Part shown: positions 5,781-9,664 of the stretch, in pieces
How positions within the stretch are numbered: the stretch's first letter is position 1
Layout: every line of letters starts with the position of its first letter
Virus record (IMG/VR): IMGVR_UViG_2582580933_000002
Origin: a virus
Lineage: Duplodnaviria > Heunggongvirae > Uroviricota > Caudoviricetes
Length of the DNA stretch: 10,605 bases
Direction: 5' to 3' (one strand)
The notes under the pieces: generated by a model
Database searches by the model: none
What the model was told of the DNA's origin: nothing
The model's input: only the letters and a program-made list of their open reading frames with translations
Program-made: the position numbers and the translations under genes

Positions 5781-5873
5781 TTATTTCCTCTTGGACATAG
5801 CTATTTTCAGTAGTGCAATCATTAAGCAACCAAAAATCAACACTAATCCCAGAGACCATAAAACCTCAATCAT
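5781..5873 (-). CDS. small hydrophobic single-pass membrane peptide, 30 aa (candidate moron, toxin or membrane effector)
   Basis: ATG at 5873-5871 overlaps the TGA (5872-5870) of the head morphogenesis gene; TAA at 5783-5781. I translated it by hand as [30 protein letters not shown]: about 20 hydrophobic residues followed by a KRK tail. It is absent from the ORF track, which lists only ORFs of 60 aa or more. 32 of its 93 nt are G/C (~34%), below the surrounding genes, and it uses rare codons (TTA, CTA, ATA, AGG). Confidence 0.35.
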   Translation of the reverse strand: MIEVLWSLGLVLIFGCLMIALLKIAMSKRK

Positions 5874-6688
5874 TTTCTATCTATCCCAGGGATAACAGGA
5901 GACCACGTACAACGGCAGTTGATAGCCTCTCCCGGCAGCACCCATTCACCATCGAGATACAGCCCTTTATCGAGGTCGAACTCTTTACCGTCAGCTTTCA
6001 CATGGGATGGCCTTGGCTGCTTCCCGGCGTGTGAGTGACGCCAGATTCCTTTGGTGATTCCTAACTTCTTCTGCCGTTCAGACTGAATTACCGCTGTAGC
6101 TTTGTTGTTCTGGTCGCGTGCAATCGTCTCAGCGCGTCTGCGTGTAATGCCATATCGCTTAACCAGTTCATCAGTGAGATAGCCAAGGTCACGACCACGG
6201 CTGACAGACTGCATGACCATCGTCTCCACCTGCGTGTGATATTGCTCAGGTATCGACTTAATCAGGTTGACGTTCTCGTTAACGACAGCCTGCATCACGT
6301 TCTTAAGCTCGTCATTCATTGTGAACTTAACGGTAAATCCGCCAGCCTTTAACGCTGAGTGTAACGAAACGTCGGTGTTGCGCAGTGTCTTATCAACGAA
6401 GCGATCAGCCAGTTTCTTGGCAAGCTCATTGAACTTGCTTTCCCACTGCTTTCCGAGCTTAGCCAGCCTGCGCTTTAACTCATCCGCCGGACTGGCATCC
6501 ATCGCCATGCTGTCTTTGTATGCAGCCTCAAGCCAGTACCGGTAAGACTTATTCATCTCACTGACCAACTTGAGAAGCTCAGAGCGATACCACTCATGAA
6601 CTCCGGCATTAGCTCTGACTGGACGAAGGGTTTTCCGGGTCTTCGAATCCTTCTTCGACGGACTCGTTTTCGTGCTCTTCTTCGTCAT
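5870..6688 (-). CDS. phage head morphogenesis protein, Mu F-like / SPP1 gp7 family, 272 aa
   Basis: The C-terminal region carries the cysteine motif typical of Mu F-like domains ([13 protein letters not shown]...[13 protein letters not shown]). Position directly after the portal gene. The ATG at 6688 gives an 80 nt overlap with the portal gene; alternative in-frame starts downstream (a TTG, and an ATG at Met45, about 6556) cannot be excluded. Confidence 0.8.
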
Positions 6689-8144
6689 ATTCAGATTCCA
6701 TCATGTGGTATGGGCTGGCCTTATCCGACTGGCGCATGCTTCTTATTGCATCAAGGTCGAACACGCCAGCTTCGGCATAGTTCTTATCAGCCTCAGACTG
6801 ATGTTTCATGATCTCGGCTTTCTCTGCTTCTGTAAGCTCGTACAGCGGCAGGAATTCAAAATCAATGTCAGGGTCAATCTCGCCAAATTCATTCAACTGG
6901 ATAACATCCAGCACTGTTTTCAGCGGCACCCTGAACAGATTCTCCTGCATGGCGTGTATTGAGTCATAGAAGACGCGGATTTCGCCATCAGATGAAGCGT
7001 TTAGCCCGTTAGGAGTGATGCCAAGGAGCTTAACCAGAGGAATGCTTGATACCGATGCCATTTGTTCCTGCGCTTGCGCCTGAAGAGCATCAACTCCGGA
7101 CAGACTTGTCACAAACTGGAAGAATTCTTCTCCATCCTTATCAATAAGGAACATTCCGCGATTGTCGCGAACCTTATTGAATAGCTCGGCACGCATAAAC
7201 AGGTTTGGGTCTGCAATTCCAGACAAGGCATTCTGCATGTTCGTCTTCAGCCCATAGACCACAAACGAATGAACCAGATCGCTAACGCTGTCACGTGTTC
7301 TCAGCCAGTTTTGCACATATGGCTCTGCCATCTGACTCAGCGACAAGCCGCCGAAGTTGTACGCCGCTTTGAGAATGTCTGGCACCTGGCGAGAAATCAT
7401 TGTCAACATACGGCTGGCGTGAACAGTCCGCCCCATGACATACCATTCAGATGGATTGAAGAAATCAGGACTGAGAGGGTTGTCAGCGTTATACACACCA
7501 GGGTATGTCCACATGGCCTCGATAACGCGGAAACCATTCAGGCTTCCTTTGGTAATCTTGCGTGGGCTGATATAGAGCTTCTTATCCAGTTCGTCGGGAA
7601 CCAGCCAGGCTGAGTTACCGCTTGGCGTCTTCACGTCGATATAAATCTGTCCGCGCCCGAAGTAACCGTCATGTTCCGCCGCCTCGCGAAACTTCTCTCG
7701 CACTCTGAAACGCTTTAATGCTTCGTCAAGCTGGCGAATCTTATCGGCCTTGTCGTCACCATCGTCTTTACCTACATGCTTCAGCTCAATCCATTTTCTC
7801 GTCATCTCTTCTGCTATCGTGCCAGTAATCTTGCGATACTCCGGCAACTGAGCAAGTTGAGACAGATATGGGTAGCCAGGAAATCCACCGTAGCCATATG
7901 CGGTGATGTTTGCTGAGTTAAGGTAACTGTACGGCGTGGAGTCCATCGCCAGAGCTGACTCCCCAATATGTTCAGGAATAACGCCTGGCGGGGGTACGTA
8001 TCTCTCAATTCTACGCAATGCCTCGCCTTCATTTTTAATTCGCTCCTGTTCGTTAATAATCGCAAGAACATTCGCCAGAGACATTGGCTGTTTCGCCTCT
8101 TCTTTCTGAGGCTCAGATTTTTTCTTTCTCAAAAAATTAAACAC
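6609..8144 (-). CDS. portal protein (DUF1073-like), 511 aa
   Basis: Large ORF directly downstream of the terminase large subunit; canonical position and size for a portal. The track start is a GTG at 8144-8142 (GAGG about 8 nt upstream, overlapping the terminase TAG); an alternative ATG lies at 8084. Basic N-terminus and very acidic C-terminal tail. Confidence 0.75.
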
Positions 8145-9664
8145 TATGCGAGCCTCAAAAGGTCTTCAGATATACGTAACGGACCATTGCCATTTTTCAT
8201 CTCATCGATGGCATCCATCATCGGATCAAGCTGGTCGTCGTGCGTATTGAAATCAGGATTAATGGCTTCCATCTCAACGAGGAAGTCATTGATGAATGGT
8301 GCGCTGCTGGGCAACTTGATGTAACCGGACTCGATATAACCCTGTACGTCCATCAGTCGTGTGTACTTATCCTTATCGCGCTGAATTGCTTTGATGGGGC
8401 ATATCGCTTTTTTACGGATGTTCTGTATCAGGCCTGTGCCAGATGACTTGTCCTCTATCGCCATGTGGCGAAGCGGCCCATTCTTCAGAGTTTTGCACTT
8501 TTCCCAGAATGCAACAGCACGGCGTTGTAATTCATCGGCCTCCCATTTACCGCGAATCATATCGATCAGATAGATGTACCCGTCAGTACCAAGCCCCCAG
8601 TGCTCGAATACTGAGAAGTCGTTGACCTCTTTTGTTTTCTGTGCGGTGTCTCCATAGACGGCACGCCATTGCATGGGAGGGAGTACCGAATATTCACCAA
8701 ACCATTCAGACTTAATAAGCCCCCCGCCTTTGGCGGTTGGTCGTTGCTGATAAAGGGCATTCCATACAAGAGAACCGCGCTGTTTGCACTTCTCTACGAA
8801 CTCTCTCGGCATGCGCTCAGGAAACAGAATTTCACCGGGATTGCGCAGTCGATACACATTACCGTTGAGTTCATGAATCTCTTCCTTTTCAGCCTCCATT
8901 GGGAAGCTAACTACGCGCCAGCGTTCCCCGCCCTCTTCAGCTAGTTTTAATAACTGTCCGGCGAGATCGTTTTGATGCCAGCGTGTCAGGATGATGACAA
9001 TTCCGTTTATCTTCGGGTCAACACGAGTGAAGAATGTCGTGTCATACCAGTCCATCACCGCTTCCTGGTAAGTTGGAGACGATGCGGTTTTGTAATCTTT
9101 CGCGGGGTCATCAATAACCCCAATGTTCATACCCTGACCGGTGATACCACCGTTAACGCCAGCAGAACGATATGAGCCGCCGTGTAGTTCGCCTTTGGCA
9201 TCAACTGGTTCCCATAGCTCGGTTTTGTTGATGCCTCCCGCCAAACTGCGTCCTGAGGGTATTTTCACGTCAGGGAAAACATCAGCGTACTTATCAGAGG
9301 TGATAATGCGTTTAACGTCACGGCTCATTCGGTCTGACAGGTCAGAAGAATATGAGCACGAGATAATGTTCCATGATGGATGCTGTCCTAACACATACGC
9401 TGGGAAGCGGCGAGAGCACAACTCACTCTTTCCTGAGCGCGGAGGGGCAAACACCATTAGCCTGGGCATGTTTCCGGCTTTAACTTCATCCAGAAAGTGA
9501 TCCAGCTCAGCACAAAGCAGCTCGTTAAACCAACCTGTTTCGTATTGCGGATTAGTGTACAAAGTGAAATCGAGAAGGTTTTTTCTTGCTGAGCGGATAG
9601 CCAGCTCTTTGTGCAACTCATAAATCTGAGCGTTTCGATTCAAGCTGATTGGAGCGCCTGCCAT
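8144..9664 (-). CDS. terL: terminase large subunit (ATPase and nuclease), 506 aa from the ATG
   Basis: Walker A-type P-loop [12 protein letters not shown] near the N-terminus; length and position after the small subunit. I chose the ATG at 9664-9662, preceded by AAGGAG with a 7 nt spacer, over the TTG at 9670 used by the ORF track. Confidence 0.9.

Follow-up and report, generated by a model that had tools for sequence, protein, structure and literature searches.

An 80 nt Overlap Between the Portal and MuF Genes of an Escherichia coli Prophage Is Probably Translated in Both Frames

Introduction

The head protein gp7 of Bacillus phage SPP1 binds strongly to the portal, is carried to the procapsid interior and binds DNA (PMC6316719), and it is present at 1–2 copies per capsid (PMC5576092). 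Genes of this type (muf genes) typically adjoin portal genes, on the downstream side (PMC5576092). Here, such a gene pair was analyzed in a 10,605 nucleotide (nt) stretch of Caudoviricetes DNA (IMG/VR virus record IMGVR_UViG_2582580933_000002), hereafter called the window, in which the reading frames of the portal gene and of the MuF gene share 80 nt. Positions 5800–8200 of the window (2,401 nt queried) were 100% identical to a prophage in E. coli chromosomes. The prophage pair has the same gene order as SPP1 gp6/gp7, and the second gene belongs to the same Pfam family (PF04233). No long overlap or co-encoded charged tails are described for the SPP1 pair (PMC6316719, PMC5576092). SPP1 also differs in its portal, since the prophage portal belongs to another Pfam family (PF06381, E217-like), and the portal binding, copy number and DNA binding described above are those of SPP1 gp7.

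The closest solved homolog of the prophage portal is gp19 of Pseudomonas phage E217 (PDB 8fvh, 9b41). The aligned residues (83–490) run to an SPYH-like motif before the acidic tail of the prophage portal, and this tail lies outside the alignment. The E217-type chain 9b41_L has 765 amino acids (aa), compared with 511 aa for the prophage portal, and its extra ∼250 C-terminal residues showed no match to the MuF profile. The MuF profile did not match any PDB chain.

Loss of a stop codon and recruitment of a start codon further upstream are both listed as origins of terminal gene overlaps (Delaye et al., 2008, PMC2268670), and the evolutionary signatures of viral overlapping genes have been reviewed (PMC8227390). 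The portal/MuF overlap is like terminal out-of-frame overlaps in several respects: adjacent ends on the same strand are shared, both frames show suppressed synonymous change, and the composition of the two segments is biased, with predicted disorder in the MuF one. It consists of two pre-existing genes extended into each other and involves no de novo gene. With 80 nt in the window and 47–98 nt in the clade that carries it, the overlap far exceeds the usual 1–4 nt overlaps of bacteria and phages, and it is kept across genera. As an example of this known kind it is well supported, and it does not amount to a new class of biology. A literature search of incomplete coverage turned up no account of a long overlap between portal and MuF genes.

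Results and Discussion

Anatomy of the Overlap

The portal gene (6609–8144, minus strand) encodes 511 aa from a GTG start to a TAA stop (6611–6609) and has the same coordinates in RefSeq. Its product matched PF06381 (Phage_portal_3 / DUF1073) with 306.9 bits over profile positions 2–356 of 357, and its homologs in the PDB were E217 gp19 (8fvh/9b41, E ∼1e-32) and the Pam3 portal. Directly downstream of it, which is the context typical of the family, lies the gene for the MuF / SPP1 gp7-family head protein (5870–6688, minus strand; 272 aa from the ATG at 6688–6686). The MuF product matched PF04233 (Phage_Mu_F) with 58 bits, against a cut-off of 29.6, over residues 153–261. The dual-coding overlap (6609–6688, minus strand; 80 nt) contains the last 26 portal sense codons with the stop codon, and MuF codons 1–26 with part of codon 27. 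MuF is read in the +1 frame of the portal gene, so that GAC GAA GAA GAG becomes ACG AAG AAG AGC. No earlier stop is present in the portal frame, and both frames are open across the overlap. A preliminary description of this DNA had given the sequences, the coordinates (portal 8144–6609, MuF open reading frame 6688–5870, 80 nt in common) and the frame relation correctly. It had left two explanations, namely that both frames are real, or that MuF starts downstream and its basic N-terminus is an artifact. Taken together, sequence comparison and structure prediction make it highly probable that the 80 nt overlap is real and that MuF is translated from the ATG at 6688, not from Met45.

The MuF start ATG (6686–6688, minus strand) is made from the portal codons TAT-GAC (Tyr-Asp) and is the sole canonical in-frame start upstream of the conserved MuF motif described below. 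A TGA in the MuF frame (6701–6703, minus strand) lies four codons upstream of this ATG, and thus the MuF frame cannot open earlier. A Shine-Dalgarno (SD)-like GGA (6697–6699, minus strand; −3.3 kcal/mol) is located 8 nt upstream of the ATG and falls in the Met-Glu codons of the portal, which are Leu-Asp/Glu in relatives.

Conservation of MuF Upstream of the Annotated Start

In RefSeq, as annotated by the Prokaryotic Genome Annotation Pipeline (PGAP), MuF occupies 6556–5870 and has 228 aa from Met45 (codon 6554–6556, minus strand), and no overlap is annotated. If this were correct, the 44 upstream codons would be an untranslated frame artifact, and the two genes would be free of overlap. The region was examined among relatives of the window. 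The phage collection offered no close genome for comparison and gave only a 57 nt match, in Edwardsiella phage GF-2. Relatives were drawn instead from E. coli chromosomes and IMG/VR contigs, and 161 loci were fetched.

A search of 5.8 billion proteins found 1,986 MuF homologs, carrying PF04233. Close relatives named by NCBI have 228–229 aa and start at the Met45 equivalent. Homologs at 55–67% identity on other contigs extend N-terminally and align over TLRxxRPNAGVxxWYRxxL, in which N27, G29 and Y34 do not vary and A28 and W33 hardly do; each of these residues lies upstream of Met45. The conservation of residues 20–44 was followed in homologs down to 41% identity, which speaks against a start at Met45. 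The p-distances at positions 1/2/3 of codons 28–44 were 0.10/0.00/0.26 for loci at ≥90% identity, 0.28/0.20/0.54 at 55–90% and 0.50/0.42/0.64 at <55%. This excess at third positions indicates coding periodicity, although the stretch would be non-coding under the RefSeq model. Moreover, position 45 itself is not ATG in 14 of the 161 loci, which have 12 Leu codons (11 CTG and 1 CTT) and 2 TTG.

The AlphaFold2 model of MuF (mean pLDDT, the predicted local distance difference test score, 76.5) contains a confident first helix of residues 28–60 (6509–6607, minus strand), which begins directly after the portal stop. The helix runs straight through Met45, a near-invariant internal Met in its middle, and a start at this residue would halve it. 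Mean pLDDT values of 10-residue blocks were 75–92 over residues 21–60 and the values were <50 for residues 1–16, which are predicted to be disordered. The only start codons (ATG/GTG/TTG) before residue 46 are the ATG at 6688, a TTG at Leu41 and the ATG at Met45. The conserved motif (residues 20–34) lies upstream of every alternative start, indicating that the conserved N-terminal region could be made only from the ATG at 6688.

The explanation that MuF starts downstream and carries an artifactual basic N-terminus, which is also the RefSeq annotation, is contradicted by conservation, codon periodicity and the structure model. Homologs starting at the downstream Met, which had been named as evidence that would favor it, were found in annotation only; the same three lines of evidence showed no such start.

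Selection in Both Reading Frames

To analyze selection, 32 loci with ≥90% MuF identity were reduced to 30 distinct haplotypes covering 1.3 kb centered on the overlap. Observed and possible single-base alleles were counted relative to the window and compared by the Fisher test. In the portal frame, 231 of 389 possible synonymous alleles (0.594) were observed in the portal-only flank, but only 5 of 40 (0.125) in the overlap (P = 6.5e-9). The corresponding values for MuF were 247/407 (0.607) in the MuF-only flank and 12/55 (0.218) in the overlap (P = 6e-8). The suppression persisted when the comparison was confined to two-fold codons for the portal (64/84 in the flank vs. 4/17 in the overlap, P = 6e-5) or to four/six-fold codons for MuF (171/295 vs. 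10/45, P = 9e-6). The non-synonymous rate of the portal rose from 0.046 in the flank to 0.128 in the overlap (P = 7e-5), and that of MuF went from 0.057 to 0.089, which was not significant. Non-synonymous variation did not drop, so general conservation of the DNA does not account for the pattern. Suppression of silent variation in both frames at once is the textbook mark of dual coding. A synonymous-site analysis across relatives had been proposed in the preliminary description, and together with the N-terminal conservation, the codon periodicity and the helix model its result supports the view that both frames are real. In particular, the five-fold suppression of synonymous sites in the portal frame needs a second constraint, which a MuF start at Met45 would not provide.

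The two parts of the overlap behaved differently. In the proximal part (6632–6688, minus strand), the strongly acidic tail of the portal is encoded together with the basic, Lys/Thr-rich MuF residues 1–19. Its variants in the close set were 5 synonymous and 16 non-synonymous in the portal frame, and 7 and 14 in the MuF frame; the two frames change at similar rates, and the changes are conservative in character. The distal part (6609–6631, minus strand) holds the conserved MuF residues T20-L-R-P-V-R-A26 and, in the portal frame, the non-acidic end (N)PSSSQS with the stop codon. Among the 30 close haplotypes, five of the six variants in this part (overlap positions 59–79) were synonymous in MuF, and all six altered the portal product (five residue replacements and one stop to Gln). 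The constraint on the distal part is dominated by MuF, and the portal residues here look like a read-through extension.

Codon choice was compared in 73 unique long overlaps. Portal Glu was encoded by GAA in 76% of cases in the overlap and in 38% upstream (300 portal codons), and portal Asp by GAC in 75% and 57%, respectively. These preferences give MuF Lys-AAG instead of the rare Arg-AGG, and Thr instead of Met/Ile. In the MuF frame, the third position was G in 54% of codons in the overlap, compared with 35% elsewhere in MuF; ACG accounted for 59% vs. 35% and TCG for 62% vs. 26%. A G at the third position of MuF codons is the first base of portal Asp/Glu/Gly/Ala codons. Each frame visibly shapes the synonymous codon choice of the other, and both are under purifying selection.

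Several points weigh against translation from the ATG at 6688. RefSeq/PGAP and most gene callers pick Met45, and the 228-aa form occurs on at least 188 contigs, compared with 7, all called by automated pipelines, for the exact 272-aa sequence. In a cluster of 610 database sequences, all named NCBI/UniRef members listed have 228, 212 or 198 aa. The SD-like match before Met45 is slightly stronger (−4.0 kcal/mol) than the one before the ATG at 6688, although scoring of ribosome binding sites was uninformative, since 30% of sites in the portal gene reach the score of this ATG. An ATG-initiated open +1 frame over the acidic tail is also expected by chance: when the portal tail was recoded with random synonymous codons, the +1 frame was free of stops in 75% (uniform codons) or 88% (portal codon usage) of cases. 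Persistence of the open reading frame was dropped as coding evidence for this reason. The bare overlap of reading frames is no more than chance, and its reality rests on the comparative data. The polymorphism tests count alleles and not independent events, and the sequences share phylogeny, with the flanks taken from the same sequences. In 14 diverged clade members, p-distances were 0.40/0.27/0.47 in the overlap and 0.29/0.22/0.57 in the flank, values which are suggestive only because the low-complexity tails align poorly; the 30-haplotype close set was used for selection instead. Finally, the evolutionary route and the tail function considered below are what we infer.

Common gene callers forbid or penalize same-strand overlaps of more than ∼60 nt. 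Such a limit would explain the shortened MuF calls. It fits the annotation of relatives with an internal ATG at 47–65 nt, which are annotated with the overlap (e.g., P0039, P0120, and P0009), while the 80 nt E. coli form is not. Considering the evidence on both sides, a start at Met45 is very unlikely, and translation of MuF from the ATG at 6688 is preferred.

Distribution of the Overlap Among Relatives

In total, 134 unique portal-MuF junctions were compared, and overlaps of ≥30 nt were counted as long. For distant homologs, the junctions were anchored at Tyr34, derived from tblastn. A long overlap was present in 23/23 unique junctions at ≥90% MuF identity and in 54/58 at 55–90% (77 of the 81 at ≥55%), but in only 5/53 at <55%, where overlaps of 1–8 nt (ATGA/GTGA type) or gaps are the rule. 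The main clade includes Escherichia, Pluralibacter, Pantoea, Serratia, Enterobacter, Pseudomonas and others. Judged from these junctions, enterobacterial and pseudomonad prophages of one clade share the long overlap as a conserved feature.

In the main clade, the portal stop is always TAA and lies 19 nt before the Tyr34 codon. In all 14 listed clade junctions, the TAA followed xCC/xCT; its T closes a Pro/Ala codon and its AA opens the invariant Asn27 codon. In the window, the T belongs to the Ala26 codon and the AA to the Asn27 codon (GCT AAT). The first MuF start, usually the sole ATG, is found 47–89 nt upstream of the portal end. A stop in the MuF frame precedes this ATG by 0–4 codons in 13 of the 14 listed junctions and by 9 codons in the remaining one (L015). 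In one IMG/VR locus (L095), the portal TAA has changed to CAA, which is silent in MuF; the portal is 5 codons longer there and the overlap reaches 95 nt. In Pseudomonas-type loci (L144–L159), the portal ends 12 nt further downstream, MuF has only TTG starts, and the overlap is 65–98 nt. Long overlaps in other registers were observed in Photorhabdus (59–95 nt), in a Rhodanobacteraceae metagenome-assembled genome (MAG) and in a distant gammaproteobacterial MAG (L080), which suggests that the arrangement arises or slides easily.

The portal stop falls precisely where the conserved core of MuF begins. This position, the +1 relation of the frames and the binding of MuF-family proteins to portals (PMC6316719) would also be compatible with a programmed +1 frameshift at or before the portal stop. 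A portal-MuF fusion would then be made, and the overlap would serve frameshifting and not internal initiation. However, the last portal codon is variable (AGC, ACC, GCC, TCC, GGC), none of these being a shift site of the CCC/CUU type, and inspection of the 14 clade junctions revealed no conserved heptamer or slippery site. A conserved ATG directly after an in-frame stop is present in every clade member. Moreover, the invariant Pro/Ala-Asn codons explain where the stop is placed, and it shifts 12–15 nt downstream when the TAA is lost (L095, L144–L159). We regard such a frameshift as extremely improbable, and internal initiation at the ATG of MuF as the preferred reading.

Relatives that lack a long overlap have short basic MuF N-termini (MAGKKKVKTIRP, MAKKIKTLR and MTGVRRRKPKTNDKVLRP), which argues that basic residues before TLR are wanted in their own right. 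Another IMG/VR locus (L130, also P0004) has a MuF 66% identical to that of the window and an unrelated, non-acidic portal C-terminus (…LEGEQFKPIKE). The two genes do not overlap there, being separated by a 3 nt gap, and MuF begins with MAGKKKVKTIRP. This pairing points to recombination at the boundary of the two genes.

Opposite Charges of the Two Tails

The preliminary description had raised the idea that an acidic and a basic segment encoded together could matter for a portal/MuF interaction. None of the present results supported this idea, and the charges have a simpler explanation. In the recoding experiment described above, the net charge of the +1 frame stayed between +6 and +12 throughout and averaged close to +8; the real value is +8. 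This follows from the code. Glu codons (GAA/GAG) before a codon starting with G give AAG/AGG (Lys/Arg) in the +1 frame, and Asp codons (GAC/GAT) before G give ACG/ATG (Thr/Met); an acidic tail thus forces a +1 frame that is rich in Lys, Arg and Thr and has frequent ATGs. The charge complementarity is a consequence of the code and not independent evidence of interaction.

In 75 junctions with a long overlap, the charge averaged −11.2 at portal positions −27 to −8 and +6.6 in the MuF stretch that precedes TLR (18 aa). The values were −3.4 and +1.7 (12 aa), respectively, in relatives with a short overlap or none. Extreme charges therefore accompany the overlap, as the coupling through the code predicts.

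The two tails, acidic in the portal and basic in MuF, might dock onto each other electrostatically, so that the inner portal crown would recruit one or two molecules of MuF; we consider this proposal doubtful. It is left some room by the binding of SPP1 gp7 to its portal (PMC6316719) and by the selection acting on both tails. If it were true, the same 60 bases would encode both partners of a contact, and the code would keep their charges matched during evolution. The restriction of the charge extremes to the long-overlap clade fits a co-amplification of the two tails, and it is equally predicted by code coupling alone.

It was also considered that the overlap is real, but that MuF residues 1–19 have no function of their own. 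They would passively mirror an acidic portal tail that is itself under selection, and MuF would read through them only to use the nearest available ATG. The charge of these residues is fully forced by the portal sequence, residues 1–16 are predicted to be disordered, and the proximal MuF variants include 14 non-synonymous against 7 synonymous ones. The tail also differs widely in sequence and length among clade members. On the other hand, portal third positions, which are MuF second positions, are strongly constrained (5/40), and the portal Glu/Asp codons are shifted toward those that give MuF Lys (AAG instead of the rare AGG) and Thr (instead of Met/Ile). Short basic N-termini also occur in relatives that lack a long overlap. 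Finally, internal ATGs that would give a shorter tail exist in several lineages, yet the first ATG stays at 65–89 nt. We consider a functionless tail improbable.

Possible Origin and Working of the Overlap

The overlap may have arisen by mutual extension. MuF would have captured an upstream ATG inside a pre-existing acidic portal tail, and the portal would read ∼7 codons into the ancestral 5′ end of MuF, to a TAA frozen in the MuF Pro/Ala-Asn codons. The ATG at 6688 would serve as a weak initiation site inside the translated message of the portal. Such weak internal initiation could keep MuF scarce relative to the 12-subunit portal. A low MuF output would agree with the 1–2 copies of SPP1 gp7 per capsid, compared with 12 portal subunits (PMC5576092). 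By analogy with SPP1 gp7, the basic and flexible MuF tail might contact DNA or the portal inside the capsid.

If MuF starts at the ATG at 6688, its start is systematically misannotated. The 228, 212 and 198-aa RefSeq/UniRef forms would lack at least 44 N-terminal residues, including the conserved motif and half of the first helix, and such shortened entries would mislead cloning, structure prediction and virion proteomics. The pair would also be a clean case of a long, clade-conserved same-strand overlap in the head module of tailed phages, with reciprocal codon distortion and an opposite charge forced by the code. A T-to-C change at 6687 would convert the MuF ATG to ACG and leave the portal silent (TAT to TAC), offering a handle on the role of the MuF N-terminus in a Gram-negative phage.

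Neighboring Genes of the Head Module

All head-module genes of the window are on the minus strand, in the order terS, terL, portal, MuF, DUF2213, cement protein and major capsid protein, as assigned by Pfam. The terS reading frame ends at 9618 and terL likely starts at the ATG at 9664, which would give a same-strand overlap of ∼47 nt (9618–9664, minus strand). A GGAG is located 8 nt upstream of this ATG, and the terL length in RefSeq (1521 nt) agrees with it. The terL stop TAG and the portal GTG share one base (TAGTG, 8142–8146, minus strand), an ordinary coupling overlap unlike the 80 nt one. The portal homolog is named “anti-CBASS protein Acb1 family protein” in NZ_CP035850.1 and NZ_CP022279.1 and “DUF1073 domain-containing protein” in others; the Acb1 name for a PF06381 portal homologous to E217 gp19 looks like an annotation artifact.

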